64,000 nucleotides of DNA, taken from positions 41-64,040 of the IMG/VR virus record IMGVR_UViG_3300037424_000665. One strand, written 5' to 3'. Shown one piece after another: positions 7,485 to 30,000 of this stretch (position 1 is its first letter; each line of letters opens with the position of its first letter). The position numbers and the translations under genes are program-made. Under the pieces are notes generated by a model. The model was given only the letters and a program-made list of their open reading frames with translations. It was not told where the DNA came from and ran no database searches. Origin of the DNA: a virus.

Positions 7485-7486
7485 GA

Positions 7487-8152: not shown

Positions 8153-8324
8153 TACTTGTGTAGTAATTTGTCTATCTCTGTGGCTGATCGTTGGCTTTGT
8201 GAGTTATGTATATGGAATGATCAAGTTTGATTGTGAATTTTATGGATTTGTCCATTTTGTTTTTTGGATTCTTCTGGGACCAATCGGATTGTTTATAAAT
8301 ATGAAAAATTGGAAAAATGAATGA
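8145..8324 (+). CDS. Small membrane protein (AT-rich insert)
   Basis: Two hydrophobic stretches; 5' end duplicates that of 8492 gene. Confidence 0.5.
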   Translation: MSDTCVVICLSLWLIVGFVSYVYGMIKFDCEFYGFVHFVFWILLGPIGLFINMKNWKNE

Positions 8325-8499
8325 TCGAAGACGACATCCATTATTTGATGATCAAGATGGCACGTGGACATATTTCGGAAAACAATATACCAGTTTAGAA
8401 CTTGATAAAAAATTACATCTATCAAAGCGATTGACAATCATTTCACATATTAAGGAGCGTCTTCAAAAGATAGAGAAGATGAAGCCATCCAATGAGTGA
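8317..8499 (+). CDS. Hypothetical protein (AT-rich insert)
   Basis: Overlapping start/stop with neighbours. Confidence 0.4.
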   Translation: MNDRRRHPLFDDQDGTWTYFGKQYTSLELDKKLHLSKRLTIISHIKERLQKIEKMKPSNE

Positions 8500-9172
8500 T
8501 ACCTGTGTCGTCAACTATTCCTCCGGCTGGTTCGTCAGGGGCCAGCAGCGATTGAAACAAGCCTGCCTCGACGTGGGCTACAAGGGGGATTTCCTGCTGT
8601 TCAACGACGAGAACCCCTTGAAGTGCCCGCCGCACAGCCAAGTGCCCTACGGCTTCAAGCCCTACGCGATGAAAGAGGCGCAGAAGCGAGGTTATCGGTT
8701 CATCTTATGGTGCGATTCGAGCGTGTACCCGGAAAGGCCCCTGGACGCCGTGTGGGCTCTGCTGCGCGAGCAAGGCTATATGTTCTTACAGTGCGGTCAC
8801 AACTGCGGAACGTGGTGCACCGACGTGGCGTTGCAAGTCCTTGGTATCGACAGGGAACTGGCTTTTACGTTACCACAACTCGTCGGCGGCTGTCAGGCCC
8901 TCGATCTTCAGAATGAGTTGGCGAGGAAGTATCTCGACCGATGGTTTGAATTGGCCAACGACGGTCTGAGCTTTCATGGTGACTGGACCAACGAACACGG
9001 GCAGGTCTCGAAAGCCCCCCGCGTCAAAGGACATCGCCACGACCAAGTTATCGGAAGCCTGATTGCCTATCAGTTGGGCATGACGGACTTCAAAGGAAAC
9101 TGGCTTATCTACGACGAGCGGGGCACAGTGCCGCGACGGCCGGAAATGATATTCGTGGTCAGGAGTGCATGA
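8492..9172 (+). CDS. GT-A nucleotide-diphospho-sugar transferase-like protein
   Basis: YGFKPYAM, ILWCDSS, HRHDQVIGSL. Confidence 0.7.
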   Translation: MSDTCVVNYSSGWFVRGQQRLKQACLDVGYKGDFLLFNDENPLKCPPHSQVPYGFKPYAMKEAQKRGYRFILWCDSSVYPERPLDAVWALLREQGYMFLQCGHNCGTWCTDVALQVLGIDRELAFTLPQLVGGCQALDLQNELARKYLDRWFELANDGLSFHGDWTNEHGQVSKAPRVKGHRHDQVIGSLIAYQLGMTDFKGNWLIYDERGTVPRRPEMIFVVRSA

Positions 9173-9440
9173 TATGCGCGGTCTCTTATTGGAAGTTAGC
9201 GTTCTTAATCCAGACGAATATGATCTTGAAACATTCTGCAAGGAATTGGTCGAATGCGCAACACGCCTCACTATCAATGTTGAGGCCCCATTTCGGGGAA
9301 CGACCATTCTTGCAACGCCTACAAGCACCTCAGAAGAGTTGGTAGCCAATTTCCGTAGGCGATTGGAGAAACACCGGGAAGAACAGAAGAATCTCGGCAT
9401 TTTCAGTATGGATGAACAAGTGAAATACAAAGGGATGTAG
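9165..9440 (+). CDS. Hypothetical protein
   Basis: AGGAG RBS, overlap with upstream stop. Confidence 0.45.
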   Translation: MHDMRGLLLEVSVLNPDEYDLETFCKELVECATRLTINVEAPFRGTTILATPTSTSEELVANFRRRLEKHREEQKNLGIFSMDEQVKYKGM

Positions 9441-9444
9441 TGTT

Positions 9445-10233
9445 ATGAGCGTTGCCCGCAAATTCCGCCGTCAGCATTTGTCTTCCACGCCTATCGGCAA
9501 GGAGCCGCCGGTCCTGATTGTCAGGCCGCATAAACAGGAGGGCTTTACCTGCGAGGCCACGAGCCAGTTCCTGTCCAAAGCCTTCAAGCGGGGCATCGCC
9601 GACTACAAGTGCATGGAAGCCCGGACGCCTGACGTCGCCCGGAATCTCGCCATCCTGGAGTTTCTCAGTAATCCCATACACGCCAAAAAGACGCACCTGT
9701 TCTTCCTGGATGACGATTCGACGCCCTGGAATGATTTTGTTATCGAAAGGCTCCTGAGCCTGGATAAGCCCGTCATTGCCGGCGTGACGCCTATCTTCAG
9801 GAAGAAAGACGCCATCGACTTCAAAAAGATTCGGATGCTGATGCTCGGCGTTGTTCAAAATGAACCTGCCCAGATGGATTTGTATTGGTCGCCTATCCTG
9901 ATGAAAGCCGGCCATTTGGAGCATATCGGTATCGACGAACTGCCCAAGACGCCGTTTGTGGCCCATCGCACGGGAGGTACGTGCCTGCTGATTCGCCGTG
10001 ACGTTCTGGAAAAGCTCAAGCCGCCGTATCAGAAATTCGAGTTCGACGAGCAGCAGATCAAGCTCCTGCGGTCAGAGGACATCTACTTCGCCGATCAGAT
10101 ACGGGAGGCTGGATTCCCTATCTGGATCGACCCCGAGAGCATTTGTCATCACTTTCACGTCCTGGATATTTTGGACATGTTCGCCATAGCGATTCAGGCC
10201 AAAGAGATGGGCAAAACAGGGGAAAAAAGATAA
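9445..10233 (+). CDS. GT-A glycosyltransferase-like protein
   Basis: ARN, THLFFLDDD, GGTCLLIRRDVLE, SEDIYF, ICHH. Confidence 0.8.
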   Translation: MSVARKFRRQHLSSTPIGKEPPVLIVRPHKQEGFTCEATSQFLSKAFKRGIADYKCMEARTPDVARNLAILEFLSNPIHAKKTHLFFLDDDSTPWNDFVIERLLSLDKPVIAGVTPIFRKKDAIDFKKIRMLMLGVVQNEPAQMDLYWSPILMKAGHLEHIGIDELPKTPFVAHRTGGTCLLIRRDVLEKLKPPYQKFEFDEQQIKLLRSEDIYFADQIREAGFPIWIDPESICHHFHVLDILDMFAIAIQAKEMGKTGEKR

Positions 10234-11755: not shown

Positions 11756-11794
11756 TCCGTGTTCTGAGTGCTTGCTGGGGGAGTAACGAAAACA

Positions 11795-12988
11795 ATGGCA
11801 AGTACAACCTTTCAGCGAGGCTCGACACATACGAACCTCGTTCCTCAGAAGTGGTCCGCACAGGACTACAAATTCGCATTTGAGGCCAATCCTCTGGCCC
11901 AGTACATCGGGCCTGGGGACGGCATGGTCGTTCAAGTCAATAAGGATTTCACCAAGGAAAAAGGCGACAGGCTCACCTTCGGACTCCGCGCCTTGCTGTC
12001 CGGCGACGGTCAAACCGACGACGGAACTTACGCCAACAACTCCGAAGGCATGACGTTCTACGATATGAGCGTCGATCTCCATGAGCGAGGCCATTCCGTG
12101 GCGCTCTCGGGCAATATGACCGAGCAGGCGGCCTGGAAGAACCTGCGGCCCCAGGGGATGCAGGCACTGCGAGAGTGGGACGGTATGGTACAGTGCGCCG
12201 ACATTATCGCGGCCCTGTCCGGCCTGACCACCAAGAAGCACATCGCAGGCCGGATCACCGGTGCCAATGCCGTCAACGCGGCTGCGGCGCAGATCGGAAC
12301 CGTCAACCAGGTCAGTCTGACCAAAGGTGCGACGGCGACGCGATGGTTCGGCGGGGGCCAGAACTCCAGCGGAACCATTGCCAGGGTCGCTACCGACTCG
12401 GCGATCAACTCGACCTCCAATCACTTGTTCGGCACGGACGTTATCGAGTACCTCTGCCGAATGGCGAAAAAGACGGTCGATGGCTCCGGCAACGCGGTCA
12501 ATCCCATCCGGCCCATCATGGTCAATGGCGAGCCGTGGTATCTGATGCTCATCGACCTGCTGCAAAAGAAGCAGCTTCAGGCAGATACCAAGTGGAAGAA
12601 CGCTCTACAGAACGCCCTTCCGCGAGGGACCAAAGACCACTGGCTGTTCAACGGCGCCGACGGTCTCTGGAACCAGGTGGTCATCAAGAGCACCGACTGG
12701 CTGCATCGCCGGACGGGTGCGGGCGGCATTCTCGCTACGGAGTATTTCGACACCACCGGCGACGCCTGCGCCTCCGGCTTCACCGTGGCGCGTGGCTTGT
12801 TCCTCGGCGCTCAGGCGGCCTGCCTGGCGTGGGGAAAGGCCCCGACCTGGAAGACGGGTTACAGCGACCCGCCTCACGACACCAAGTACACGGTCCATAC
12901 GGATAAAATTTTTGGTGTCAAGAAATCCGTGTTCAATTCCGTGGAACTCGGCTGCATCGTCTGTGATACAGCGGTGATCGGGGATTGA
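11795..12988 (+). CDS. Major capsid protein (N4-gp56/DUF4043-like HK97 fold)
   Basis: KDFTKEKGDRLTF.L...LSGDG, IRPIMVNGE.WY, DTKW..A, LF.GADG.W, RGLFLGAQA...AWGK, G.KKSVFN. Confidence 0.85.
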   Translation: MASTTFQRGSTHTNLVPQKWSAQDYKFAFEANPLAQYIGPGDGMVVQVNKDFTKEKGDRLTFGLRALLSGDGQTDDGTYANNSEGMTFYDMSVDLHERGHSVALSGNMTEQAAWKNLRPQGMQALREWDGMVQCADIIAALSGLTTKKHIAGRITGANAVNAAAAQIGTVNQVSLTKGATATRWFGGGQNSSGTIARVATDSAINSTSNHLFGTDVIEYLCRMAKKTVDGSGNAVNPIRPIMVNGEPWYLMLIDLLQKKQLQADTKWKNALQNALPRGTKDHWLFNGADGLWNQVVIKSTDWLHRRTGAGGILATEYFDTTGDACASGFTVARGLFLGAQAACLAWGKAPTWKTGYSDPPHDTKYTVHTDKIFGVKKSVFNSVELGCIVCDTAVIGD

Positions 12989-14346: not shown

Positions 14347-15123
14347 ATGAGTAAAACCGACCCTATCGACCCCGCAGTTCCTGCGGGCTCGGAAGACCCG
14401 AAGTTAGGCGATAACAGAATCCGTGAGTTGGCGGCCGCCGTCGCGGAAATCCTGGCCGTCGATCATTACATTGGCACCAATGGCGGAGCCGGGACGGGAT
14501 ACAACGAGGACGCGGCAGGCGAGCACGCTAAGGTGACGATCCGCAACGGTTCGGCCCCGACGGCAGCGGCGGGCAAAGGATTTCTGTACGTCGTCTCAGG
14601 GGAATTGTACTACAAGGACCCCAGCGGCAACGTCATTCAACTGACCAGCGGCGGCATTCTCAACAGCCTCAATCTGACCGGCAACCAGACGGCGGCGGGC
14701 GTCAAGACGTTCTCGTCTCAGGCGGCTTTTGCGGCCGGCCTGACGGCGGCGGCGGCGATTATCAGCACACTAGTTACGGGTACGGCGCCTTTCACGGTGG
14801 CCTCGACGACGAAAGTGGCAAACCTCAATGCCGACCAGGTGGACGGCTTCCACGTGACGGCCCCCGACGGCACGCAAAGTTATACTATCGCCGGTGGTTT
14901 GATTCTCAAACAGGGCCAAGCCGCTTTTTCCGGCTCAGACCTTACGGTCACTTTTGGGGAGGCGTTTCCGACGGAATGTATCCGCGTGATTGCCTGTTTG
15001 AACGACACCGCATGGTCCACAAATTACGCGCCGAAGATCATCTCGAAGAGTGCAAGTAATTTCGTCGTCAGCATGGGTAATGCAACGAGTTTGAACATCG
15101 ACTGGATTGCGATTGGTAGATGA
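14347..15123 (+). CDS. Short tail fibre / virion appendage protein
   Basis: LTGNQTAAGVKTFSS, LNADQVDG, C-terminal GGLILKQG...VTFGEAFPT..WIAIGR (gp53-like fibre tip). Confidence 0.65.
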   Translation: MSKTDPIDPAVPAGSEDPKLGDNRIRELAAAVAEILAVDHYIGTNGGAGTGYNEDAAGEHAKVTIRNGSAPTAAAGKGFLYVVSGELYYKDPSGNVIQLTSGGILNSLNLTGNQTAAGVKTFSSQAAFAAGLTAAAAIISTLVTGTAPFTVASTTKVANLNADQVDGFHVTAPDGTQSYTIAGGLILKQGQAAFSGSDLTVTFGEAFPTECIRVIACLNDTAWSTNYAPKIISKSASNFVVSMGNATSLNIDWIAIGR

Positions 15124-16952
15124 AGCGATTTGCCATATACTCGCCGACTCTCGGCCTGCGTGAGGATTATCCGGGAATCCTCTTGCAGAAGGCCCTCTTG
15201 CCCGACGCGAACTACGTACAGGTCCGTTGGGGTGAAATCTGGAAGGCCAAGATGCGGACTTCGGAACTGCTCAGGACGATTCACGCCGTGGCCTCCGTCG
15301 ATACCTCGGCCAATACGGTGACTATCAGCGGCAACGTGGTTTCGATGTACCCCAACGGGGCCGGGATTACCCTCTACGATACCGACAACGACTACGAGAC
15401 CAGCTTTACGCTTTCTACGACGGCGGCCTATAGCTCAACCTCAACGATTCTTACCGTGACCGGCGACATCACCAGTACGACGCCGGCGGACTTCGTATTC
15501 CGCAATGACGACGTGGCCTCCAGTGATCCCGCGAGCGTCGATTTCCGCAAGGTCGGCTTCCCGGACGGCAATCCTGTTCTGGACTACCAGACGTTGACGC
15601 TCTCGGACGGCACGGAGCGGTTGTGCGGCTTTACGAAGGACCATATTTACTACTGGAATACCACTCTAACCGAATGGACTTTGCTCCATACCTGCGCCTC
15701 ATCCTGCACGTTCTGGTCCACGGCCAAGTACGGCGACAATCTCTGCGCGACGAACAACGTCGATAGGCCCGTCTATTGGGACGGCAATACGGCCAATACC
15801 TTTGAGAACATCGATACGCAGTACACCTCCGCGAGCGCCGATTACGTCGCCAAGGCCAAGTTCATTGCCAGCTATCATAACTACCTCTTTTTGGGCAACG
15901 TGGAGTTATCGAACGGCAGTCGGTATCAGAGCCACGTCTATTATTCCACTATCGGCGAGGGCCTGACGGCGGGCGGCTGGCAGCAACTTGCCACCAAAGA
16001 CGCCGGCTCAGCCTACGTAGCCGGGGACGGCGAGATCACCGGCGGCTTCGGCCACTGGCAGGGCTATCTGTGCATCTTCAAGAGGCGATCTATACGCAAA
16101 TGGTGGTTCGTCGGCCTATCCATTCCCTTCGAGCAATCGGAGCTCTCGCCGGACATCGGCTGCATTGCGCCGGGTTCCGTCGGCAACGACTGGGAAGGCG
16201 ACCTGTACTTCTACGGCACGGACAAGAGCTTTCACGGCATGGCGGCAGGCAACGTCAGCCAGGCCATCGACAAGACGGCAAGAGACATCAATCCCTCCCT
16301 GCTCGAAGGCATAAGATTCCTCGCCGTCGATGAATACCGGGAGCTTCGATGGTCCGTACCCTACGGCAACTCGGCGACGGCCAATAACAAGATCGTCGTC
16401 TATGTGCCGGGCGAACGACGGTGGGACTGTGATATGGATGTCGCGGTGACGGCCTTCGGAACCTATACGCAGCAATCGAACTGGACGTGGGACACCCTGC
16501 CGTTCTCGTCCTGGGACGAATGGGGGTGGGACTCCTGGGACGCCATCGAGGCGTCGTCGGACTTCCCGGTGGATATTGCCGGCGACGCCAACGGTTATAC
16601 CTACGCCCTGCACGGCGGCTATCTCGATGACGGTTCAACCTACGAAAGCTCGTTCGTCCTGACGACGGACCTCGCCGACAAGCAGGCCTTGCCCTATTAC
16701 AAGAGGGTGACGCAGTTGTTCGTCTATGCGAACAAAGAGGGTACGGGCACGCTGACGCTCGAAGTCAAACGCGATAACGAGGCGAACTGGAAGTCGTTGG
16801 GCTCCGTCAATCTGACCGGGACGGAAGACGTGTTGCGCCAGCGCTTGGCCGTTGACTTCACCGGCCGGCATTTCCTCATCAGGATAACGGGGACCAGTGC
16901 CTTTCGTTTTATCGGCGTCGAGATAGAGTTTAACGTGGAGGGACATCGCTGA
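15120..16952 (+). CDS. Tail nozzle / packaged-DNA stabilisation protein (P22 gp10 / T7 gp12-like)
   Basis: Beta-propeller-like repeats, GCIAPGSV, C-terminal GRHFLIRI; position in tail module. Confidence 0.65.
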   Translation: MKRFAIYSPTLGLREDYPGILLQKALLPDANYVQVRWGEIWKAKMRTSELLRTIHAVASVDTSANTVTISGNVVSMYPNGAGITLYDTDNDYETSFTLSTTAAYSSTSTILTVTGDITSTTPADFVFRNDDVASSDPASVDFRKVGFPDGNPVLDYQTLTLSDGTERLCGFTKDHIYYWNTTLTEWTLLHTCASSCTFWSTAKYGDNLCATNNVDRPVYWDGNTANTFENIDTQYTSASADYVAKAKFIASYHNYLFLGNVELSNGSRYQSHVYYSTIGEGLTAGGWQQLATKDAGSAYVAGDGEITGGFGHWQGYLCIFKRRSIRKWWFVGLSIPFEQSELSPDIGCIAPGSVGNDWEGDLYFYGTDKSFHGMAAGNVSQAIDKTARDINPSLLEGIRFLAVDEYRELRWSVPYGNSATANNKIVVYVPGERRWDCDMDVAVTAFGTYTQQSNWTWDTLPFSSWDEWGWDSWDAIEASSDFPVDIAGDANGYTYALHGGYLDDGSTYESSFVLTTDLADKQALPYYKRVTQLFVYANKEGTGTLTLEVKRDNEANWKSLGSVNLTGTEDVLRQRLAVDFTGRHFLIRITGTSAFRFIGVEIEFNVEGHR

Positions 16953-17266
16953 TGCACGCTCCGGTTTCCATCCAGGTTCAGCCCGCGATTGTCCTGCCGG
17001 GAGATTCCGACCAGGTCCGCGACTTGAAGAACAAGCTCAACGAGGTCATTCGCAAGTTTGACGAGGTCTATCGGCTACTGCGGGCGGATGTGATGATTAT
17101 GGATTTCCGCCAGTTGCCACCGCACGCGGGTATTGACCACGCCTCCTGGAAACTTTACGAGAACCCTTCGACCGGCGATCTGGAACTCTGGCATCGCACC
17201 GATAGCACTTGGGCGAAAAGTTACTGGGACATTCTTGGCGACAAAACTCGTCGGCCTACGGTATGA
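16952..17266 (+). CDS. Small virion-module hypothetical protein
   Basis: TGATG coupling. Confidence 0.5.
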   Translation: MHAPVSIQVQPAIVLPGDSDQVRDLKNKLNEVIRKFDEVYRLLRADVMIMDFRQLPPHAGIDHASWKLYENPSTGDLELWHRTDSTWAKSYWDILGDKTRRPTV

Positions 17267-20082
17267 AGTATGCTTTCTATATTCTGTTGATGGTGTTGGC
17301 GGTTGCCGGCGGGGTGGCAATGGGAAGCTACGCTCCGCGCACGCACGTTGACTACGCTCCCTTTGACCAACGCCTCCCGCGTCAATTAGTGATGGTGGGA
17401 GATGAGGGCAAGATCGTACTCTACAACCAGGCCGGGGACGGCAACTGGTACTGGTGGTCGGTTCGCGCCTCGAACGACATGGTGACGGACGTCAATTACA
17501 TTTGGCCAAGCGTCGTCGGCGATGTCAATTCGGCCTTGTCGATTTACTCTATCGCTGGGAATGAGGTAACGCTTCGCTGGGGTGGATTCAGTGACGCCAA
17601 CGGATTGTTGCCCAGTAAGACGCCGTGGAACGTGATGTTCGTCGGCGCCGACGGCTATCCTTTGACCGAAGACCCAAACAACTTCACGTACTATCAGCCC
17701 GAGACGGCCTTTGGCTTGGGACTCGACAATATCGCCGAAAGCACATACGCCAACAACTACATCCAGGTCTATTCCCTTCTGGACTTCGAGCCGAACCTGT
17801 TCAACGTCACGATAGGCCGGGGCAGCGACGATACGGCCACCGGGCCGAACAACGTCACGATAGGGCATGGCGCTGGCGACGCCCTTGATGAGGGCTACGA
17901 GAATACCCTGGGGGGCAACTACGCGGGCCGCTATCTGATAGACTCGAACGACAACACCGGTTGGGGCTATGCGGTCTTGGGTGGGGAATCCAGCACGCCG
18001 GGCACGGCCTACACGCAGTACGTCGTTGGGATATATCCGAATCCAGCCAGCAACAAAATCGCGGCAATGGTTACGACGAACAACACCATCGTGACAAGCT
18101 GGGGAACGAACGGCTATTTCACTTACTATAGCGCCGAAGGAAGCGACGGACCCGAATACACCAGAGTGATACACCAACTCTCAGATGGGAGGATTTTGCT
18201 TGGTACGGATGGATTTAGGATTGACGCTCCAAACGGCGACCCCAATTGCTATATAGCAACATTGATAATGATAAATGCCGATGGGACTCTTGACACGACT
18301 TGGGGGCACAATGGCTTTTTTGGGCAACTCCAAGGCGTGGCATGGTACAGCAATCCGAATGCGATTCTTGAAGATAATGATGGGAATTTTCATATCTTCG
18401 GTCAAGTCGCAGCATTCGGCGGCGGTTATTACAAACTCTCGTCCGCAGGTGTATTCATATCGGGCTTGAAAGATACAAATTACTCAGTTCTTTATGCCTT
18501 CAATGGTGCCTGCTGGGCCGATGATGCAAAAACAAGGATCATCGCAGTTGGCACGCCAAACCAGATTTTCAACGGTGTGGGTTATACGTCCTGTAATGTT
18601 TCAGCTATCGATCCGGCTACAGGAACAAGAGACGACACCTGGACGGGCAATGTCAGTATCACTGGTACGGCGAAATACGGGGCGGAGGCTCCGACCTTAC
18701 TGTCTTTGTACTCGATAAACCGGATGAGCGATGACGGATTTGTGACCTATGAAAACGCTGGAAGCCCATCGTATCTGCACAAATTCATTGCCGATGGCAG
18801 TGCTTATGACACAGACTGGGGTACTGCTGGTAAGCTCCAGATGGGCATCTATAACATAAACATGCGCAGCAATTGTGTCATTCAGGATAGCGACACGATT
18901 TACATGTACACGCTCAACGATGCAAGCAAGGTCAGAATCAACAATGTCAATGGTGCTACAGGCGTTGTCACATCCTATTTCGATACGACGGTAAGTGCGG
19001 GCAGTTATGTGAGCATGGCCAAGATCAACGATTCTCTGTTTTTGGGACGCACGAACACACCGGCGCTGCAAGTTGAGGAATGGACGACCGCTCCGGCATA
19101 CGTCACCGGCATAGACGTTGGAGCATCTTCTGTCTGGTGGATTATGCCGGATTCAAGCACTCAGCTTCCCGGCGACGACTTCCACAACGCCGCCGCGTTC
19201 GGGGCCTATGCTTTGGGCAATCTCAAGACGGGCGGGGATAGTTCGCTGGGCCTGGGAACTTACGCGGGGCGGCACAACGAGACCGACCCCAACCGTTTCT
19301 TTTTGGACAATCTCGACCGCACGGACCTCAGTGGCGAGCAGACCAAAGGCATGATGTACGGCTACTTCGCCGACGATCCAAACGACCAGTGGCTCACGCT
19401 GAACGTCGGGGAGCTGAACCTGCCGATAGGCCGGTTCGACGTGAACGATGTCAACGTGGCGGGGACGCTGACCTTGCAGGGGCAGACGGCTTCGCGGCTC
19501 TTAGCAACGGACGGCTCGAAGAACGTCGTCTCGACGGACCTGGTGAGCTGGGTAGCGGCCACGGCGGATGAGACGACGGTAGCCGACGATGGGGACGGCA
19601 CGATAACGATAGGGATTGCCGACCCTTTGATTGTGGGCAAGGGCGGAACGGGCGCAGCAACATTGACGGATCACAGCCTCTTAGTGGGCTCAGGGACGGA
19701 TGCCATCACGCCTTTGGGCGCAGCGACGAACGGGCAGATACCCATAGGCTCGACGGGGGCCGACCCGGTTCTGGCGACTCTGACGGGCACGGCGAATCAG
19801 GTCAACGTGACAAACGAGGCGGGAACGGTAACGCTTTCGGCGCCGCAGGATATCGACCCCAATTCTTCGCCGAGTTTCGTGAATCTCCTATTGACCGGCT
19901 ATGTCGAGTTGACGGAACTTTCGGCGGACCCTACCAAGCCGTCCGAAGGCCAAATGATTATCTGGCTTTCGGATGGCACAGGATTCGGGGACGATGGCGA
20001 TGTTTGCATAGCAACTACGGCCTTCGGTGTGACAAGAAGAGCGATTTTATTTGATGCGAGCATGGGAGATGTATGGCCCTGA
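17263..20082 (+). CDS. Large tail-fibre/adhesin-like protein with N-terminal signal peptide, YadA-like repeats and inserted delta-60-like beta-propeller
   Basis: MKYAFYILLMVLAVAGGVAMG; NVTIG..AG/NT..G..A repeats; DG.LD.TWG repeats; fibre-like C-terminus. Confidence 0.6.
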   Translation: MKYAFYILLMVLAVAGGVAMGSYAPRTHVDYAPFDQRLPRQLVMVGDEGKIVLYNQAGDGNWYWWSVRASNDMVTDVNYIWPSVVGDVNSALSIYSIAGNEVTLRWGGFSDANGLLPSKTPWNVMFVGADGYPLTEDPNNFTYYQPETAFGLGLDNIAESTYANNYIQVYSLLDFEPNLFNVTIGRGSDDTATGPNNVTIGHGAGDALDEGYENTLGGNYAGRYLIDSNDNTGWGYAVLGGESSTPGTAYTQYVVGIYPNPASNKIAAMVTTNNTIVTSWGTNGYFTYYSAEGSDGPEYTRVIHQLSDGRILLGTDGFRIDAPNGDPNCYIATLIMINADGTLDTTWGHNGFFGQLQGVAWYSNPNAILEDNDGNFHIFGQVAAFGGGYYKLSSAGVFISGLKDTNYSVLYAFNGACWADDAKTRIIAVGTPNQIFNGVGYTSCNVSAIDPATGTRDDTWTGNVSITGTAKYGAEAPTLLSLYSINRMSDDGFVTYENAGSPSYLHKFIADGSAYDTDWGTAGKLQMGIYNINMRSNCVIQDSDTIYMYTLNDASKVRINNVNGATGVVTSYFDTTVSAGSYVSMAKINDSLFLGRTNTPALQVEEWTTAPAYVTGIDVGASSVWWIMPDSSTQLPGDDFHNAAAFGAYALGNLKTGGDSSLGLGTYAGRHNETDPNRFFLDNLDRTDLSGEQTKGMMYGYFADDPNDQWLTLNVGELNLPIGRFDVNDVNVAGTLTLQGQTASRLLATDGSKNVVSTDLVSWVAATADETTVADDGDGTITIGIADPLIVGKGGTGAATLTDHSLLVGSGTDAITPLGAATNGQIPIGSTGADPVLATLTGTANQVNVTNEAGTVTLSAPQDIDPNSSPSFVNLLLTGYVELTELSADPTKPSEGQMIIWLSDGTGFGDDGDVCIATTAFGVTRRAILFDASMGDVWP

Positions 20083-22901
20083 ATAGCAATAATAGTGTGA
20101 GTGTTTTAATTGCGGCGCGCAACGAACCCTATCTCGGCCAGACCATTGCCGACGTGCTGGCCAAGGCGCGTGGGGATATTGAAGTCATCGTCGTGCTGGA
20201 CGCCTACTGGCCGGAGCATCTTCCTCCTGAATACAGCGACCATGAGCGGGTCACGATCATCCATCCCGGCCGCAACATCGGCCAGCGGCCCGCCGTCAAC
20301 GAGGCCGCCCGCATCGCCAAGGGCAAGTATATCTTCAAGCTCGATGCGCACTGCATGGTCGATGAAGGCTTCGACGTGAAGCTGGCCGCCGACTGCGAGT
20401 ACGACTGGACGGTGATTCCCCGAATGTACCAGTTGGATGCCGAGCACTGGAAGCCGAAGCTGGGCAAGAAAACGGACTTCATGTTCTTCCGTGCGCCGGA
20501 CGCCGACGAGCATCCCTTTCGCATCGACTACTACGATGGACGGATTGCACACAAGTTCTGCGAAGAGTACCGGGCCTACAAGAACGCCACATGGCGGCAG
20601 GGGGATATTTGCGACACCATGACCTGCATCGGGGCGGGATGGTTCATGCACCGGGACCGCTTCTGGGAGCTGGGCGGCATGGACGAAGAGCACGGCCATT
20701 GGGGACAGATGGGCGTGGAGCTCTCCTGTAAGACGTGGCTATCCGGGGGGCGAATGGTCGTCAACAAAAAGACGTGGTTCGCGCACCTGTGGAGGGGGCA
20801 CGCGCCGTGGAAACTGACGCAGAAGCAGGTGGATAAGGCCAGGGAATACTCGAAAGACCTCTGGCTCAGCGGCAAGTGGCCGTTGCAGAAGAGGCCGCTG
20901 TCATGGCTCATCGAGAAATTTGCACCCGTCCCGACGTGGGCAGACTATCAGTTCAATGAACCCAAAACGAAAGGAGAACCCATTAACCCTCAAAACACAG
21001 GTGATTTGACCCTGCTCTACTACACAGCGAACCGGATTGATGAAACATTCAGAGATAAGGTGATTGCGCAGTTGCAGTATGCCTCTCCGAATACACTAGT
21101 CATCACTGTCTCACAGAAACCGATGGGCAGTGATGACGATATAGGTTACAACATCTGCGTCGGTGAAATAGGGGCATCCCTCCAGAACATCTACAAGCAG
21201 GTTCTTGCAGGACTGCGGGAAGTCAAGACCGAGTATGTCGCCCTGGTCGAGGATGATTGCCTCTATGTGCCGGAGCACTTCACATTCCGGCCTACGCATA
21301 TCGCCTACAATCTCAATCGCTGGCTGCTGCACGCTGATAGCGAGCACGTCTTTTCCTACCGAAGGCGTCCGATTCTCTCGCAGTGCATCGCTCCGACGAA
21401 ACTCTTGTTGGAATGTCTGCAACAGCGCGAGGGCAAGGATATCCCCAAGAAGTATTCCGGCGAGCCGGGCCTGTTCGAGGGCAAGCTGGGATTGAAGGAA
21501 TATCCCTATGAGACGTTCGAGACCAAAGAGCCGAACGTCGTTGTCTGCCATAACAAGAACACGTCGGGCCGCAAGTATCTGGGCAAGGACGCCGAGCCGC
21601 GAAGCGAGTTGCCGCCCTGGGGACGCGCTTGGGATTTGCTTATGGCGCTCGGACTTATTGAAGGGCGGGATAATTCTTCAACACCAAGCATTTCGTCGGG
21701 AACTATGGAAGACGAAACGAATGAGGAATCACACGACAAAGAAGATGAGGAGCAAAACATGGCCAAGTTCGGCAGGGGCTCGTGGAAGCGCTGGCAGCAC
21801 TCGTATATCGGCAGCATCATCTTCGGTATGGACGAGATCATGGGACAGCTCATGAACTTCGCCGACCGCAGACGACCGGGCAGGGCGGAGCGAAGGATGA
21901 AAACGCTGCCGCCGTTCGTAGAAAGAATCGCCAACCAAGAACTGAGTTCTCCCTTTGAAGAACAGCAACTCCGTGATGATCCGTGGTTCGCTTACCTGTG
22001 TGAGCTCTACCCAACGTGGCGGAAATCCAAACGAGAGGCCAGAGTGCTTCAAATCATGCGGGAAACTGTCAAACTCTTTCACGACATCAAGGAAAATGGC
22101 CTCAAGTCGCCCCTCGATATGTGGCGTGAGGGTAAGGACAGGCTCATTCTGCATCGCGGCTGGCGCAGACTTATCATCATGCACGAACTTCACAAGCGGG
22201 GTCTTCGGGACTTCTCCCGCGTGCCTGTGCGGGTGTTCAAGAGCAAAGCAATCTTCCAGAAGTACGCACCATCGCCGAAGTGGGCCGAGGGGCCTGTCGA
22301 TGACAATTCCATTCACGGCCTCGCTATGAAGCAGTTCTGCGAGAGGGGCATCTATGCCACGGATAAATACTGGGTACACGGTTATATTCGGCAGTACGAC
22401 CGGCACTTTGCGCACCTGCGAGACAAGCCGGTGAAGCTTCTGGAGATCGGCGTCTTTCGCGGGGCGTCGCTGCTTCTGTGGAAAGAGGCATTTCCAAAAG
22501 GTCAGATTTTCGGCCTCGATAAGAATACGGCGATCTGGCAGAAGTTCCTCAAGGGCCAGCAGCGAATTCACGTCTTTGTCGGCAAGCAGGAAGATGAGTC
22601 ATTCCTGAAGGCTCAAGTCATTCCCGCTGGGCCTTACGACATTATCGTGGATGATGGAGGGCACACGCCGGAAGAGCAGTTGGCGAGCTTCAATCAGTTG
22701 TGGCCTCATCTTGCGCCGGGTGGTATTTACGTCATCGAGGACATGCACGGCAACTACTGGGAGAAGCGAGCCAAAAACGGCCCGCTGATGGCGGAGCGTA
22801 TCAAGGCCATGATTGACGAAACTGTGGGGACAAATGACTGCCTCGATTATCAGTCTTTGGCAGTCTATTACAACATCGCGTTCATCGAGAAGAACCGCTA
22901 A
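20073..22901 (+). CDS. Multidomain enzyme: ppGalNAc-T (GT27)-like GT-A, second GT-A, ParB-like segment, sugar O-methyltransferase
   Basis: LDAHC, GGMDEEHGHWGQMGVELSCKTWLSGG, AHLWR; VEDDCLY; IKENGLKSPL...HRGWRRL; TDK..HGY...YDRHF...LLEIGV.RGASL..WK..FP. Confidence 0.8.
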   Translation: MALNSNNSVSVLIAARNEPYLGQTIADVLAKARGDIEVIVVLDAYWPEHLPPEYSDHERVTIIHPGRNIGQRPAVNEAARIAKGKYIFKLDAHCMVDEGFDVKLAADCEYDWTVIPRMYQLDAEHWKPKLGKKTDFMFFRAPDADEHPFRIDYYDGRIAHKFCEEYRAYKNATWRQGDICDTMTCIGAGWFMHRDRFWELGGMDEEHGHWGQMGVELSCKTWLSGGRMVVNKKTWFAHLWRGHAPWKLTQKQVDKAREYSKDLWLSGKWPLQKRPLSWLIEKFAPVPTWADYQFNEPKTKGEPINPQNTGDLTLLYYTANRIDETFRDKVIAQLQYASPNTLVITVSQKPMGSDDDIGYNICVGEIGASLQNIYKQVLAGLREVKTEYVALVEDDCLYVPEHFTFRPTHIAYNLNRWLLHADSEHVFSYRRRPILSQCIAPTKLLLECLQQREGKDIPKKYSGEPGLFEGKLGLKEYPYETFETKEPNVVVCHNKNTSGRKYLGKDAEPRSELPPWGRAWDLLMALGLIEGRDNSSTPSISSGTMEDETNEESHDKEDEEQNMAKFGRGSWKRWQHSYIGSIIFGMDEIMGQLMNFADRRRPGRAERRMKTLPPFVERIANQELSSPFEEQQLRDDPWFAYLCELYPTWRKSKREARVLQIMRETVKLFHDIKENGLKSPLDMWREGKDRLILHRGWRRLIIMHELHKRGLRDFSRVPVRVFKSKAIFQKYAPSPKWAEGPVDDNSIHGLAMKQFCERGIYATDKYWVHGYIRQYDRHFAHLRDKPVKLLEIGVFRGASLLLWKEAFPKGQIFGLDKNTAIWQKFLKGQQRIHVFVGKQEDESFLKAQVIPAGPYDIIVDDGGHTPEEQLASFNQLWPHLAPGGIYVIEDMHGNYWEKRAKNGPLMAERIKAMIDETVGTNDCLDYQSLAVYYNIAFIEKNR

Positions 22902-25430
22902 ATGGCGACGACAGGGGCAAAATATCCGACTTTAGGCACGACGACGGCAGAGTTGCCCTACGATGATTTCGCCTGGCAGACGCCGACGAATATCTACGGG
23001 GATGAGGGCAACAACGCCTACGTCGATGATAATGCCTTCGATAGCGGAAGCTACACCCAAGTCCTCAAGGCATCCGGTTTCGATTTCTCGGCCATTCCCG
23101 ATGGGGCGGAGATTCTCGGCGTTACCGTCAAGATCGAGGCGCACTATACCGTGGGCGCTGCGAAGCTTTCACTGGCCCAGCTTCTCGACGTGAACGGCGC
23201 GAAGGTCGGCACGAATCTCTGCGCAACGCCGGTGGCCCTGACGGTGACAACCCCGACCGTCATCACCAGAGGAGCGGCGGATTCGCTCTGGGGCAACTCT
23301 CTGACGGCGGCCTGGGTCAAAGACCCCGACTTCGGCGTGGCCCTGGGCATCGACGCGACCGGCAACAACTCCAACGTCTATATCGACTACGTGACGATGG
23401 AAGTGACTTACGTGGGAGTTTCGCCTTCGGTTAGCCCGTCTATCAGTCCTTCTGGTTCGCCGTCCGTAAGTCCTTCTGGCAGCCCTTCGGTCTCGCCGTC
23501 TGTCAGCCCGTCAATATCTCCGTCAGTTAGTCCGTCCGCGTCGCCATCCATGAGCGCGACACCTTCGGTCTCACCATCCATAAGTCCTTCGGCCTCGCCC
23601 TCACCGTCGGTCAGCCCGGCTCCCGGCCAGAACTGGTTCATGGATGACTCAAGTTGTATAGCCGTTTGGAACCTCGAATCCGGGGCATTGACCGTCGATT
23701 CCAAAGGCACGAACACGCTGACAAATTATGGTGTCACTTCTGATATTTCAGATTACAAGCAAGGTGCTGGAAGCGGTGTTTTTGAGGCAGTCAACGGCGA
23801 TCACTTTTATATTTCTGATACTGATTTGGATTCCGGATTTCCCGGCAAAGATGGTGAAACGAATCGAAATTTTACATTCTGTTTTTGGTTCAAGCCTGCA
23901 TCGGCTAATATTTCTCGGTATGTGTTTTTAAAGCAGGGTGCATTAGAGACAGACAAGTCGTATGGTTTGTATTATTCGACCTTTAAGCAACTGTCTCTCA
24001 TGTCCTCTATGGATGGAGATGCTTGGCAATTTTTAAGCGCCTCATCCACGTACACAATAGAGCCTGGCACTTGGTATCATTGTGCATTGTGGGCAAATGT
24101 TGCGACAGGTGCTTGGGGTATCCGAATACACAATAGTACAGAACTTGTCACGTCACAGGATAAAACGGGCGTTGGCTCATATTGGATTGGACCAAGTGAG
24201 TTTTATCTTGCGTGGGTAGCTTCACCAATAGGTATAGATGGCAAGCTCGATGAAGTCGTCGTTTTCAATCGCGTGCTGAGCATCGATGAGATTGACGATA
24301 TTTGGATGGGTGAATTCGGCAAGGTGACGCCCTCCATCAGCCCCTCCGTTACGCCCTCCGTCTCACCGAGTGTTACTCCGTCTGTGTCTCCGAGCCTGAG
24401 TCCCTCGGCCAGCCCCAGCGCATCAGCAACGCCCTCGGTCAGCCCAAGCATTTCTCCGTCGGCGTCCCCGTCCGTGAGTCCGTCCGTCAGTCCATCGGCG
24501 TCGCCAAGTGCCAGCGCAACACCATCGGTCAGTCCTTCTATAAGTCCGAGCGCCTCGCCATCCGCATCGGTATCGCCCAGCGCTTCGCCGTCGATTAGCC
24601 CGTCGGCGTCCCCATCCATTTCCGCGACGCCTTCGATCAGCCCGAGTGCCAGCCCGAGTATTTCGCCTTCGGCCTCCCCCAGTCTTTCGCCTTCTATAAG
24701 CCCTTCGCTGTCGCCCAGCATCAGCCCAAGCGCTTCGCCCTCAATTTCCCCAAGCGCAAGCCCTTCGGCCAGTGCTACGCCGAGCGTCTCACCTTCGGTA
24801 AGCCCGTCGGCGTCACCCAGCGCCAGTGCTACACCGTCTGTATCTCCGAGTGTAAGTCCCTCGCTCAGTCCCAGTGCGAGTCCGAGCATTTCACCGAGTA
24901 TCAGTCCTTCAGTGAGTCCTTCGGCGTCGCCTTCAATCTCAGTCAGTCCAAGCGTTTCACCATCGGGAAGTCCTTCGGCAACACCGAGTACATCCCCGTC
25001 GGCGAGTCCCAGCGCGAGCGCAACTCCGTCTGTTTCACCCAGTTTATCTCCCAGTGCATCGCCGTCTGCGTCCGCTACGCCTTCGGTATCACCATCCGGC
25101 AGTCCCAGTGTTAGCCCTTCGATTTCTCCGAGTGTCTCGCCCTCTGGAAGTCCAAGCATAAGCCCATCGGTTTCACCATCCGCGTCACCCAGTGTTTCTC
25201 CGTCTATCTCGCCGAGCGCTTCGCCGTCATTTTCCGTCAGTCCTTCCATGAGTCCCAGCGGTTCGGCCAGCGTATCTCCATCTGGAACGCCGAGTGCATC
25301 ACCCTCGGCTTCCGCAAGTCCGAGTCCGGGACCGGCAACGATGTTGATTGTTCATTTTATAGAACCCGTAACAACAGGTCAAGTTATTATGTTTGATGGT
25401 CAATATTGGACCAATGAAGATATTCCATAA
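22902..25430 (+). CDS. Mucin-like Ser/Pro-repeat virion protein with LamG/ConA-like domain
   Basis: Two (S/T)PS(V/I/A/L) tracts flanking a LamG-like block (FTFCFWFKP, WYHCAL, GKLDEVVVFNRVLS..EI). Confidence 0.8.
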   Translation: MATTGAKYPTLGTTTAELPYDDFAWQTPTNIYGDEGNNAYVDDNAFDSGSYTQVLKASGFDFSAIPDGAEILGVTVKIEAHYTVGAAKLSLAQLLDVNGAKVGTNLCATPVALTVTTPTVITRGAADSLWGNSLTAAWVKDPDFGVALGIDATGNNSNVYIDYVTMEVTYVGVSPSVSPSISPSGSPSVSPSGSPSVSPSVSPSISPSVSPSASPSMSATPSVSPSISPSASPSPSVSPAPGQNWFMDDSSCIAVWNLESGALTVDSKGTNTLTNYGVTSDISDYKQGAGSGVFEAVNGDHFYISDTDLDSGFPGKDGETNRNFTFCFWFKPASANISRYVFLKQGALETDKSYGLYYSTFKQLSLMSSMDGDAWQFLSASSTYTIEPGTWYHCALWANVATGAWGIRIHNSTELVTSQDKTGVGSYWIGPSEFYLAWVASPIGIDGKLDEVVVFNRVLSIDEIDDIWMGEFGKVTPSISPSVTPSVSPSVTPSVSPSLSPSASPSASATPSVSPSISPSASPSVSPSVSPSASPSASATPSVSPSISPSASPSASVSPSASPSISPSASPSISATPSISPSASPSISPSASPSLSPSISPSLSPSISPSASPSISPSASPSASATPSVSPSVSPSASPSASATPSVSPSVSPSLSPSASPSISPSISPSVSPSASPSISVSPSVSPSGSPSATPSTSPSASPSASATPSVSPSLSPSASPSASATPSVSPSGSPSVSPSISPSVSPSGSPSISPSVSPSASPSVSPSISPSASPSFSVSPSMSPSGSASVSPSGTPSASPSASASPSPGPATMLIVHFIEPVTTGQVIMFDGQYWTNEDIP
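23421..23622 (+). repeat. SPSx tetrapeptide tract 1
   Basis: About 16 units, synonymous codons scrambled. Confidence 0.9.
24327..25329 (+). repeat. SPSx tetrapeptide tract 2
   Basis: About 80 units with periodic SASAT variants. Confidence 0.9.
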
Positions 25431-25469
25431 AATTCGCAGCGAATTTTAGATAGAAAGTGAAGGTGACTT

Positions 25470-26331: not shown

Positions 26332-27045
26332 ATGAGTGTACTTGACCTACGAGAAAATCCGGCACAGCAGATGCAGGTTGTACAGGGCGTCGGCGGCGGC
26401 ATCAGCGATATGCTCAACGCCTATCGCAACCGCAAAATGGAGCAGCGGGTCATCGGCGTCTTGAACGATCCCAATATGAACGCCGAGCAGAAGCGGCTGC
26501 AACTCCTGAAGGATGCGGATTTCCTGCGCTCGCCGACGGGCCAGAAGATGATGTCCGATGAACTGTCGGGTCAGGCGGCCATGCAGATGCAGGAACGGCA
26601 GGCGCGGCTGGCGAATCTCCAGGCGGGGACGCGAGCTACGCAGGCCAGGGCCAAATACTACGAACAGGGCGGGGCAAGAAAAACAGCCACCGATCCGACG
26701 ATTCGCATCAGACGTTTGCAGGAGATCAAGAATCAAGCCTCAATCGACGGAGATGCGGAAATGGAGGCGTGGGCGGACGGCGAACTCAAGAAATTACTGC
26801 CTACTCAAGCGCAAGGACCCCAAGGACCCGTCGATGCCGTCACGATGGCCTCACCGAGCATCCAACCGACCGATATTCAGCCGCCACAACCGTCGGGAGG
26901 GACACAGCGAGAGCTTGAACCCTTGACGGACGAGCAGGCCCGGCGCAACGCCAGACCCATAGCGAGCAAGGAAGAATACGACGCCCTGCCGCCGGGGTCG
27001 TATTTCATCGCCTCCAATGGAGAGCTGAGGCAGAAAAATGGCTAA
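26332..27045 (+). CDS. DNA ejection protein 2
   Basis: Q/A/G-rich; AGGTGA RBS; lies between pilot and large internal protein. Confidence 0.6.
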   Translation: MSVLDLRENPAQQMQVVQGVGGGISDMLNAYRNRKMEQRVIGVLNDPNMNAEQKRLQLLKDADFLRSPTGQKMMSDELSGQAAMQMQERQARLANLQAGTRATQARAKYYEQGGARKTATDPTIRIRRLQEIKNQASIDGDAEMEAWADGELKKLLPTQAQGPQGPVDAVTMASPSIQPTDIQPPQPSGGTQRELEPLTDEQARRNARPIASKEEYDALPPGSYFIASNGELRQKNG

Positions 27046-30000
27046 CTGGTGGGAAGAAGGTTCGACGGCTGTAGCGGTCCCGAAAACGCAGGAGAATTTC
27101 TGGGAGAAGGATTCCACGCTTATCGCCGCTTCCGCCCGGCCGGTTGAAACGGCTATGCCTGAAATTATGGGGCCTCGCTACGAGCGCCGACCTTCAGGGA
27201 CGCAGATCATCGAGGATACGGCGTTCCCGGCGATTGACCCCGAGATTCTCAAGGTAGCCGAGGGACTCAAGGCCGGGACGGTGACGCCGCCGGTGGAACC
27301 TACGCAGGCGGTCAGGCTGGGTACGCCGAAGCGGCCGTACACACCGTATATCCAAGCTGGGATCGGCGGGTATGGTGTAACGCCGCCAGATTTGGCTGTA
27401 CGTCTTGGTAAGCACGTTCTCAATGCCTTCCCCGAACTAGCAAAGGGCATTCTCTCATCGCCACTGTCACCCGCCAGTTTCTCTGATGAAGACCTTCAGC
27501 CTTATATGCAGCAGGCCCTTAACGATGTCGGGAAGACCTTTAAGGGCAGTGCGGCAGAGACATTCAAGTTAGCCAAGACAAGGGCTGCTCAACTGGCGGC
27601 TGAGGAGAAGGTTCCCGCCTTCAAGATCGAAGCGGCCAAGCCGGGCGAGACTGGCAAGAAGGCCATCGACATTGCCGGCGGACTTGGCAAGTTTGTGACC
27701 CAATTGGCCGTCCTGCGCAGGGTAGCCCCCAAAGGCGCCCCGGATGCCGTGATCTGGGAGATGCAGAACCAGTTGACGGGTGGCGTCCCAGGACAGGGCT
27801 TGGCGACTCGCAAGGCTTTGGGGGGTATTGGCAGGATTCCCACTGGCTCTATGGTTGGCAAGGTTGCCAAGACGGGAGCAGAGTCAGGGTTGTTCGCCGG
27901 GATAACCGCCGTCACGGGCGGCAACGCCGAAGACATCATCGTTTCGGCCTTAGTGCCGGTAGCGTTCAATTCCTGGCATTTCGTCAAGCAGAAAGCCTAC
28001 ATTCAGGACTACGAGAGGCAGCTTCGCGCAGAGGCCCGCAAAGAATACAACAAACGCATCCAGGAGGGTATGCCGGAGCCTTTCAGCAGGAAGCACCTTG
28101 AGATCGACCTTCGCACCGTCGATACAGCCGTCGCAAAAGCCAAGCAGCGGATTTACAGCGACGATGCCTTTGCACCGGCAAAAGACAAATGGGAGGCCGA
28201 AAGGCAGAAGGCCCTCAAGATGGTGGCGACCGGCAGGCCGGAAATGGTTCGCAGAGGCAACGATATTCTCAACTTCATGGCGACGACCGCGCCTCCGGGA
28301 GAGCAATTGCCAATCCCCACTACCCGCGTCGGCGAGGTCATCGAGACAGCCAAAGAGATTGTAACGAAGCCCGGCCAGGCGATTCGAGAGGCCGTCAGGC
28401 CCACAAAGCCCCCCGTCATGCCTGCCGGATCCGCCTTGAAACCGCCGCAGGTTGCCCCCGAGGGGGTTACGCCACCGCCGCCCGCTATTGAAACCGGAAA
28501 AGCCCCCACAGCCGAAACGGGGGCCGTAGAGCCAGCAGCGGGAAAGCCATTAACCAGGATGTCTCCAAAGGAACGCAATACTTTCAAACTCGGTATGCGT
28601 GCTGCCTTCAAAATGAAAGATGGCCGGATTATCGAAACTGGTTACGTTCATACAATGCCCGAAGGCATGAAGACTGAGGATATTGCAGAGGTTGGATTCA
28701 CCCGCCCTGATACCAAAGAATTTCTTACAAGAGAACAAGCAGGCGAATTGACAGGCATAGATGAAGGTGTCGAACTTGAACAGTTTTCAGAAGAAATCTC
28801 TGAAGCGCCACCAGAAGAATTACCAGATAGGGAGTTGGCGGAAGAATTGCTATCGGCCAGAGAAGACCGACGGCCCAAAGAGGTTGTACCGATTCAGCAG
28901 GCCCCTCCCGCTCCCGCCGAAGGCAAGGGTCAACCTGTGCCCCAGGTAGCGGGAAAGAAGGTGATACAGGCGTATGTAAAGGATGAACAGGGGAATATCT
29001 ACACTGCAAATACACACGGCGAAGCCTATATGAAAATGGAGGATGCCGGGGGCACGGAAAAGGCTATCCGAGATTCTGGCTTTGTTGTGGACGGCAAACT
29101 GATACCAGATAGCGAAATCAACCGTGGTGAATTAGAGAAACAAGGTTATATTTCGCAACCTCCCGCCCCCGCCGAAGGCCAGGGGCAGAAGCAGGCGTGG
29201 GAGATGACTTATGCTGAAGCCGAACGGCTGTATAGACAGAATACAAAGAAATCTGTTGGTCAATCGCAAGAAATGTTAGAAGCGATGCCAACAGATGAAC
29301 TTCTTGCACTGGATGATTCGAGAATTGCAAAAGGCGACTTGGACGCGGTTGTACGACAGGAACTGGCTACTCGATACAATGCGTTGCCGCACGAGTACAA
29401 GTATGAAACCGATTTTCAACAATGGAAAGAATCTATTCGGCAAGCGGCCCTGAGCCAGCAGGCGGGCCCCACGCCTTCGGCAGAGGCGAGGGGGAAACTG
29501 GAAGGGCCAGAGAAGCCCAAAGGCGGCGGGGCAGGTGGTTCCTCTGTTGCCGCCGCATCTGCCGAAGCGACGGGATCAGGTTACGGCACGATTGCCGCCA
29601 GCGAAAAGAGTGCGTTCAGCGAGAAGACTGACCACAAACGTCTCAATGCGGAGATGCCGGCCAGACCATCGTTGCAGATCATCGACAACACGCTCAAGAT
29701 CGCTGCTCCCGCTATCCGTGGCGAACAAGCCAGGGCAACGGCCCGCGTTGTGCGAAAGAATCTCGGTCAACTGGCGCAGGAAACATCAGTGCTTCACGAG
29801 ACACTGAAAAAGGCTCATCGTGCCTTTGTCTTTATGCAGCGGGATGATATTTACAGCTTCATCGACCGCATGGAGAACGGCCAAGCTCAATCGACGCCGA
29901 AGTTGGAAGAGATTTCCAGGAAGTTGCGAGAGCTTTTGGATGACCGCAGGGATCGTGTGCAGGGACTCGGCAAGGGATTGCTCGAACACTTTTATGAGAA

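Follow-up and report, generated by a model that had tools for sequence, protein, structure and literature searches.

Enzymes of glycosyltransferase family GT27, the polypeptide N-acetylgalactosamine (GalNAc) transferases (ppGalNAc-Ts), are to our knowledge regarded as a eukaryotic invention, and we know of documented self-glycosylation of phage virions by the phages' own enzymes only in a few mycobacteriophages. Among Gram-positive bacteria, the serine-rich repeat glycoproteins Fap1, GspB and SraP have long alternating-Ser stalks, and dedicated enzymes whose genes adjoin that of the substrate glycosylate these stalks in the cytoplasm, with the GT-B pair GtfA/GtfB initiating the reaction and an accessory Sec system exporting the product. 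According to the work of Freeman et al. (2023), as summarised in two reports (PMC12363180, PMC12619734), the mycobacteriophages Che8 (gp110), Corndog (gp38) and Myrna encode glycosyltransferases and methyltransferases that modify their own structural proteins, with the glycans attached at the C-termini of subunits of the capsid and tail tube. The cytoplasmic protein A064R of chlorovirus PBCV-1 acts on the glycan of the virus's own capsid. A literature search returned nothing specific on GT27-like phage or prokaryotic enzymes paired with Ser/Pro stalks, or on glycosylated Ser/Pro phage fibres. Here we describe such a pair of genes in an uncultured phage from IMG/VR, analysed across a window of 64,000 nucleotides that comprises nearly all of its 64,140-bp source record (100 % complete by CheckV). 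The pair consists of a 942-amino-acid enzyme (P0001; 20073-22901) and an 842-amino-acid protein rich in Ser-Pro-Ser units, hereafter the SPS protein (P0002; 22902-25430), both on the plus strand, as are nearly all genes of the window. The best reading of this arrangement, to which we assign a probability of about 60 %, is that the phage O-glycosylates its own fibre in the host cytoplasm and methylates the attached sugar.

The enzyme and its serine/proline-rich neighbour

The enzyme gene lies downstream of the capsid gene, between the SPS gene and the gene of a 957-amino-acid fibre-like structural protein, identified from the open reading frame (ORF) list (17209-20082, plus strand). The fibre-like ORF, with its stop at 20082, overlaps the enzyme's ATG at 20073, and the enzyme's TAA (22899-22901) abuts the ATG of the SPS gene at 22902. 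A first-pass annotation, made from the letters alone, had reported these ORFs with their coordinates, the abutting stop and start, and four motifs in the enzyme, all of which were confirmed; the motifs begin at residues 10 (SVLIAARNE), 83 (KGKYIFKLDAHC), 188 (AGWFMHRDRFWELGGMDEEHGHWGQMGVELSCKTWLSGG) and 236 (FAHLWR).

Domain 1 of the enzyme (amino acids 1-290; 20073-20942, plus strand) is a GT27-like GT-A domain with the ligands D91-x-H93 and H238, and is the proposed initiating O-glycosyltransferase. Across the whole enzyme, Pfam detected only Glycos_transf_2 (PF00535; residues 10-133 only, 63.2 bits against a cut-off of 23.3) and Methyltransf_24 (790-890); the former model is given to GT27 catalytic domains too, and so does not separate GT2 from GT27. 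The distinction was made by other comparisons. Firstly, in a search with a profile built from 23 diverse homologues of residues 1-300, the 13 top-ranking PDB structures were all ppGalNAc-Ts (E 1e-13), matched across positions 3-244, which represent the whole catalytic domain and include the Gal/GalNAc-T motif and the third His; ordinary GT2 structures matched over the N-terminal Rossmann half only. Secondly, Foldseek searches with an AlphaFold2 (AF2) model of the domain (predicted local distance difference test score, pLDDT, 91) returned a ppGalNAc-T at every one of the best 50 PDB and best 30 Swiss-Prot matches. Thirdly, VIA-align, an aligner independent of Foldseek, was run against 48,161 representative chains, and placed mouse GalNAc-T1 (Z 27.0, root-mean-square deviation 2.7 Å over 270 residues, 23 % identity) and Toxoplasma GalNAc-T3 (TgGalNAc-T3; Z 25.5) ahead of the next enzymes, a fucosyltransferase, heparosan and chondroitin synthases and SpsA (Z at most 18.4), giving GT27 a margin of 7-9 Z units over all other GT-A enzymes. 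The first-pass annotation had set GT27 against generic GT2 as the choice to be made, and no clustering with ordinary GT2 enzymes emerged from the profile, from Foldseek or from the independent aligner.

The aligned residues agree with this placement. D91 and H93 align with the DAH of GalNAc-T1, and H238, the His of HLWR, with that of GHVFR; the aromatic residue after this third His is kept (HLW in the enzyme, HVF in GT27), as are W210, G211 and E216 of the Gal/GalNAc-T motif. D91, H93, H238, D204, E216 and the SGG of the same motif are invariant in 23 diverse family members. Drawn from sequence profiles and a predicted structure, these comparisons support domain 1 being nearer to the GT27 polypeptide GalNAc-transferases than to ordinary GT2 enzymes. 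The enzyme has no signal peptide, membrane segment or type II topology, and in the AF2 model its N-terminus leads directly into the first beta-strand. Hence it would act in the host cytoplasm.

The adjacent SPS protein contains 92 non-overlapping, or 93 overlapping, [ST]PSx units, close to the roughly 95 units of the first-pass count, and these are confined to two tracts. The protein begins with a beta-sandwich (amino acids 1-170; 22902-23411, plus strand), defined from an AF2 model (pLDDT 96.7), matches in BFVD and 63 homologues, mostly of 170-290 amino acids. Pfam and PHROG searches with this N-domain gave nothing useful, and its PDB matches were weak and limited to folds resembling carbohydrate-binding modules; in BFVD it resembles the N-termini of large viral proteins (template-modelling score, TM, 0.79-0.83), including a tail protein of Methanobacterium virus Drs3. 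The N-domain is followed by tract 1 (amino acids 171-235; 23412-23606; 43 % Ser, 24 % Pro by regular-expression count), a Concanavalin A-like lectin domain (Laminin_G_3, PF13385; 23637-24323; E 3.6e-14, residues 320-464) and the 335-residue tract 2 (amino acids 475-809; 24324-25328; 46 % Ser, 23 % Pro), all on the plus strand; tract 1 is a proposed acceptor stalk, and tract 2 the proposed main one. Strict (S/T-x) alternation covers 398 residues of the protein, with the longest run, of 220 residues, in tract 2. All six Ser codons are intermixed across the tracts, and Tandem Repeats Finder detected only three short, weak DNA repeats in the gene; hence the pattern is maintained at the protein level. 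An antisense ORF of 348 amino acids is a mere shadow of the repeat. Within SPSx repeats, alternate Ser residues have Pro at -1 and +3, and the remaining Ser residues have Pro at +1, which are the positions that ppGalNAc-Ts favour. A candidate acceptor peptide for a donor-sugar screen is SPSVSPSISPSA. The architecture and fold of the protein, its position in a fibre operon and the cassette exchange described below suggest that it is part of the virion.

The remainder of the enzyme offers candidates for later steps. Domain 2 (amino acids ~295-550; 20955-21722, plus strand), on which Pfam and PHROGs gave nothing useful, was recognised by an Atlas structure search as a second GT-A domain, with the motif E393-D-D395, and is the proposed extending transferase. 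Its matches (TM 0.63-0.78) were GT2-bearing clusters and stand-alone viral "glycosyltransferase" clusters of ~220 amino acids, and D395, Y398, F403, E464, G466 and H493 are invariant among 47 sequences. Domain 3 (amino acids ~760-900; 22350-22772, plus strand) resembles the S-adenosylmethionine-dependent sugar O-methyltransferases MycE and TylE, based on matches to Methyltransf_24 (PF13578; E 3.4e-10, 41.2 bits against a cut-off of 26.3), to the methyltransferase family phrog_21658 (E 8.8e-24) and to the PDB entries 3ssm (MycE; E 1.7e-25) and 8ia9 (demethylmacrocin O-methyltransferase, TylE; E 8.8e-20). Its LEIGV...G, DDG.H and YVIEDM stretches are conserved in the alignment to 3ssm. It is the only domain of the enzyme to find relatives in GenBank phages, the best of which are mycobacteriophage methyltransferases adjoining glycosyltransferases. 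Between domains 2 and 3, a segment at amino acids ~575-730 (21795-22262, plus strand) has a weak ParB/sulfiredoxin (Srx)-like fold, no more than a lead from the Atlas structure search, in which it matched a ParB/Srx cluster at TM 0.57 with a feature score of 0.80; Pfam and PHROG searches of residues 560-770 gave nothing useful.

Co-occurrence of the enzyme with serine repeats

A word-indexed search recovered 1,068 proteins of the GT27-like family; counted in other ways, the family comprises at least 514 clusters at 50 % identity (E up to 1e-30), and is found on at least 572 IMG/VR contigs and on 245 genome contigs. A tblastn search with residues 1-300 found no relative in 50,697 GenBank phage records, mycobacteriophages included. 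The first-pass annotation had suggested that co-occurrence with SPS-repeat genes be examined across phages, and the association proved strong. An SPS-type ORF, defined by 10 or more [ST]P[ST]x units, was present in 63 of 86 viral enzyme loci, and in 49 of the 56 for which 15 or more genes were called. It almost always shares the enzyme's strand and lies no more than a few kb away. No such ORF was present in 80 random IMG/VR loci, which were drawn with an arbitrary 14-mer, totalled 740 kb and were unmatched for lineage. Strict alternating-Ser tracts followed the same distribution (46/86 viral and 28/78 genome enzyme loci, 0/80 random viral loci). Among loci of at least 16 kb, tracts rich in Ser and Thr were found in 41/43 viral and 30/33 genome loci; this generic measure has a high six-frame background (13/80 random loci), and the stricter SPS-type and alternating-Ser measures are preferred.

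This pairing extends beyond viruses, being found on contigs of 119-568 kb assigned to Patescibacteria (the candidate phyla radiation, CPR), Gammaproteobacteria and archaea, in which the downstream proteins reach 2,662 amino acids and contain 50-236 units. The largest family of non-glycosyltransferase neighbours occurs in only 14 of the 86 viral enzyme loci, and the globular domains of the SPS proteins are mutually unrelated. Hence the pairing is not a single inherited syntenic block, and what is shared is the repeat itself. The possibility of one conserved substrate protein was dropped, as a search of the enzyme loci for the globular domains gave one LamG match, and the N-domain in two loci (L040 and L319). 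Even at the closest homologue of the enzyme (77 % identity), the downstream protein has another globular domain, which runs into TPSASPSASATPSVSPS repeats and the end of the contig. The two contigs carrying this closest homologue (L391 and L392) end, at ~10.8 kb, inside the downstream SPS repeat. Assemblies therefore seem to break at SPS genes, in which case the counts of co-occurrence are underestimates.

Further observations concern the cellular relatives. The closest in cellular bins (75-79 % identity) are on two short contigs (L280 and L281) binned as Sedimentisphaerales (Planctomycetota), which provides a weak hint as to the host. At L344 (19256-20486), on a 241-kb contig from WWE3 (CPR), a 2323-amino-acid protein with 236 SPS-type units and no signal peptide is followed by small membrane proteins, which, judged from their N-terminal sequences, may be TatA- and TatC-like; if so, they would hint at an export route for the stalk protein.

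The pair can also be followed through a complete relative of the phage. The mosaic genome G047 (64,311 bp, 100 % complete) has 52 % of the window in common, at 83-99 % nucleotide identity, and has neither a GT27-like gene nor any ORF with more than four SPS-type units. Comparison by blastn found unrelated sequence in place of a 5.6-kb cassette (19863-25435, plus strand) comprising the distal end of the fibre, the enzyme and the SPS protein; the G047 counterpart consists of a longer fibre distal end and two small ORFs. The fibre-like protein is 957 amino acids in the window versus 1444 in G047 (L156, 12105-16439), with the proximal parts in common and the distal parts unrelated. This difference looks like the swap of a fibre module that includes the enzyme/SPS cassette. 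The enzyme and the SPS gene are therefore absent together, and the swap falls where fibre modules normally exchange.

A control anchored on the SPS N-domain was supportive, not decisive (Fisher p = 0.09; 33 loci, 3 with the enzyme). Of these 33 viral loci, the 30 without the enzyme had no SPS-type ORF, and one of the three with it had SASE/SPSA repeats. In one locus of the former group (L359, 10001-13462), an N-domain 73 % identical to that of the SPS protein is joined to hundreds of residues of near-pure poly-Ser (SSSSSS[EQL]) in place of SPSx; the part of this contig examined contains no GT27-like gene.

Weighing the proposed fibre glycosylation against other roles

From the directly observed gene arrangement, folds, conserved ligands, co-occurrence and co-absence, we infer an acceptor, an order of steps, a methylation target, incorporation into the virion and a benefit to the phage. 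Domain 1, as a Mn2+-type GT-A enzyme with DxH...H ligands, would add the first sugar to Ser/Thr hydroxyls of the (S/T)-P-S-x tracts; domain 2, a GT-A domain with an EDD motif, would add a further sugar; and the MycE/TylE-like C-terminal domain would O-methylate a sugar. This would yield a fibre-type protein with a beta-sandwich anchor, a lectin domain and two stalks, of 65 and 335 residues, which would form a stiff, protease-resistant glycan brush.

Several results weigh against this proposal. Firstly, the positions of the Glu and Asn in the GT27 motif WGGENLE, which contact the sugar in GT27, are occupied by Met/Val and Gly in the phage family, and the Pfam search of the enzyme found no Ricin_B (ricin-type lectin) domain; hence the rules for donor and acceptor may differ from those of GT27. 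These two features, together with the absence of a membrane anchor, are the reasons for calling the domain GT27-like. The mucin-type O-glycosylation put forward in the first-pass annotation thus stands as regards a GT27-like fold paired with SPS-type ORFs, and lacks support in its strict GalNAc sense; receptor mimicry, shielding or adhesion, which the same annotation suggested for the glycan brush, are putative roles. Secondly, the association runs in one direction. Anchoring on SPS-type proteins, the enzyme was found within 10 kb at only 3 of 64 loci (61 without), and in 4 of 46 whole records (42 without), or 2 of 4 when records were at least 90 % complete. The idea that the repeats require this enzyme was consequently rejected, as SPS-type proteins mostly occur without it. 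An enzyme nearly always accompanied by repeats that often occur alone fits the dependency of an enzyme on its substrate, and implies that the repeats either have a role without the enzyme, or are served by other enzymes, including those of the host. Thirdly, in two of the three N-domain loci with the enzyme (L378 and L379), it adjoins a homologous N-domain protein that has a different, non-Ser-rich repeat and no Ser-rich tract. Fourthly, when the order of genes inside each locus was permuted, immediate adjacency exceeded the expectation only slightly (29 observed against 22.6 +/- 3.4), because most loci hold several glycosyltransferase paralogues. Finally, the random loci against which co-occurrence was judged are not matched to the enzyme loci for lineage.

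Some of these points suit an alternative that we consider unlikely, in which the enzyme builds or modifies a glycan not attached to protein (a polysaccharide of the host envelope or a lipid-linked sugar, for example) for superinfection exclusion or receptor masking, or else modifies another virion protein. In both cases, the SPS tracts would be flexible spacers without glycans, located by chance in the same variable fibre region. The generic GT2 assignment by Pfam, the frequency of SPS proteins without the enzyme, the near-chance adjacency within loci and the enzyme at L378 and L379 without a Ser-rich neighbour all count in favour of this alternative. The phage also has a separate glycan-gene cluster of ~10 kb, kept in the relative that lacks the SPS gene, and it therefore glycosylates something else too. 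However, the fold is specific to the GT27 enzymes acting on polypeptides, rather than the GT2 enzymes acting on polysaccharides, and the enzyme has no membrane segment. Furthermore, its pairing with alternating Ser recurs in phages, CPR bacteria, Gammaproteobacteria and archaea in unrelated neighbourhoods, and the two genes are lost together from G047.

It is quite improbable that a host enzyme initiates on the SPS tracts, leaving the phage protein merely to extend and methylate the glycan, although this would account for phages that have SPS proteins and no enzyme gene, and the GT27-like homologues of cellular genomes mean that hosts may supply an initiating activity. Domain 1 retains the full set of metal ligands, and is conserved in every member of the family; domain 2, the candidate for extension, is found in only 46 of 119 homologues. 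Glycosylation of hypermodified bases in the phage DNA, which has been reviewed as a common role of phage glycosyltransferases, and for which the weak ParB/Srx-like segment could bind nucleotides or DNA, is highly improbable, as the gene is in a fibre operon and not among the replication genes, no base-hydroxymethylase is present among the annotated ORFs, the fold matches protein O-glycosyltransferases, and the pairing with Ser repeats would be left unexplained.

The glycosylation of the phage's own fibre thus remains the preferred account. It is the genomic context that suggests a peptide acceptor, by linking a GT27-like family with fibre-type proteins that bear mucin-like Ser/Pro stalks. If the preferred account is correct, many environmental phages and ultra-small bacteria bear glycan-brush fibres that annotation from sequence has missed, and the adsorption and stability of such phages, and their recognition by immune or defence systems, would depend on stalk modification. 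It would also provide a soluble, bacterial-type enzyme for the dense O-glycosylation of a simple repeat tag, usable in glycoengineering, and would make the origin of mucin-type glycosylation testable. A broader and doubtful extension is that a viral and prokaryotic sister family of GT27, with its alternating-Ser stalks, represents an old and widespread cytoplasmic "mucin-type" O-glycosylation in phages, CPR bacteria, Gammaproteobacteria and archaea, from which the eukaryotic polypeptide GalNAc-transferases may have evolved. This work contributes four results: the two genes are missing together from a complete relative, random loci provide a control for the co-occurrence, the reverse test came out negative, and GenBank phages lack the domain.

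Genomic setting and described systems

The genes surrounding the pair are those of a phage structural module. The terminase (58933-60438) and portal (61570-63612) genes are towards the end of the window, and the glycan-gene cluster of ~10 kb (2-10233) spans the start of the record, between the portal and the scaffold/capsid genes. The major capsid gene (11768-12988; PF13252 and phrog_334) is followed by genes for tail-fibre-like and virion structural proteins (14347-16952), and then by that of the 957-amino-acid fibre-like protein, for which Pfam and PHROG searches gave no match. The fibre, enzyme and SPS genes are proposed to belong together as a coupled, late unit within the phage's structural module, in a genome of 64 kb; a scan of 16.5-27.2 kb for promoters and terminators gave results indistinguishable from shuffled sequence.

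The glycan cluster comprises a pyruvyl transferase, several GT2-like genes, a fusion of a glycosyltransferase with an FkbM methyltransferase, a GT9-like gene, a class I methyltransferase, a GDP-mannose-4,6-dehydratase-like enzyme and a radical SAM protein. It is kept in G047 at 75-99 % identity, and since that relative has no GT27-like or SPS genes, the target of the cluster probably differs. Downstream of the SPS gene are two small ORFs, an unannotated protein of 1891 amino acids, an endolysin, and recombination and replication genes. The 1891-amino-acid ORF (27038-32713) has no Pfam or PHROG match, and contains an HExxH-like stretch (LAHEIGHILG) and repeated PPAPAEG(K/Q)GQ segments; its product could be a large protein inside the virion, or one ejected from it.

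Compared with the described systems, the phage enzyme has in common with eukaryotic GT27 enzymes (GalNAc-T1, T2 and T10, PGANT9 and Toxoplasma GalNAc-T3) the GT-A fold, the DxH motif and third His ligand, the W-G...E...GG core of the Gal/GalNAc-T motif, the aromatic-Arg pair after the His (HLWR versus HVFR), and the pairing with Ser/Pro-rich acceptor-like tracts. Whereas those enzymes are type II membrane proteins of the Golgi, the phage enzyme is soluble and cytoplasmic, has no ricin-type lectin domain, has not kept the Glu and Asn of the WGGENLE motif, carries a second GT-A domain and a methyltransferase in the same chain, and belongs to a viral and prokaryotic family whose peptide acceptor is predicted. 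The Gram-positive serine-rich repeat systems differ in their machinery, as neither GtfA/GtfB nor an accessory Sec system is seen in the phage.

Virion glycosylation in mycobacteriophages is similar in having a glycosyltransferase and a methyltransferase within or beside the structural genes, although the mycobacteriophage glycans are not on long repeat stalks. The tblastn search with residues 1-300 gave no mycobacteriophage match, and hence no sign of homology to Che8 gp110 or Corndog gp38; only the methyltransferase domain matches mycobacteriophages. PBCV-1 A064R combines two glycosyltransferase domains and then a sugar methyltransferase domain in one viral polypeptide, as does the phage enzyme; in contrast, it extends an N-linked glycan in a eukaryotic virus, and no sequence relationship between the two was found. 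Lastly, the macrolide sugar O-methyltransferases MycE and TylE align with the C-terminal domain (E 1.7e-25 and 8.8e-20), with DDG.H and IEDM kept, whereas the phage domain is fused to glycosyltransferases, and its presumed substrate is a sugar linked to protein.

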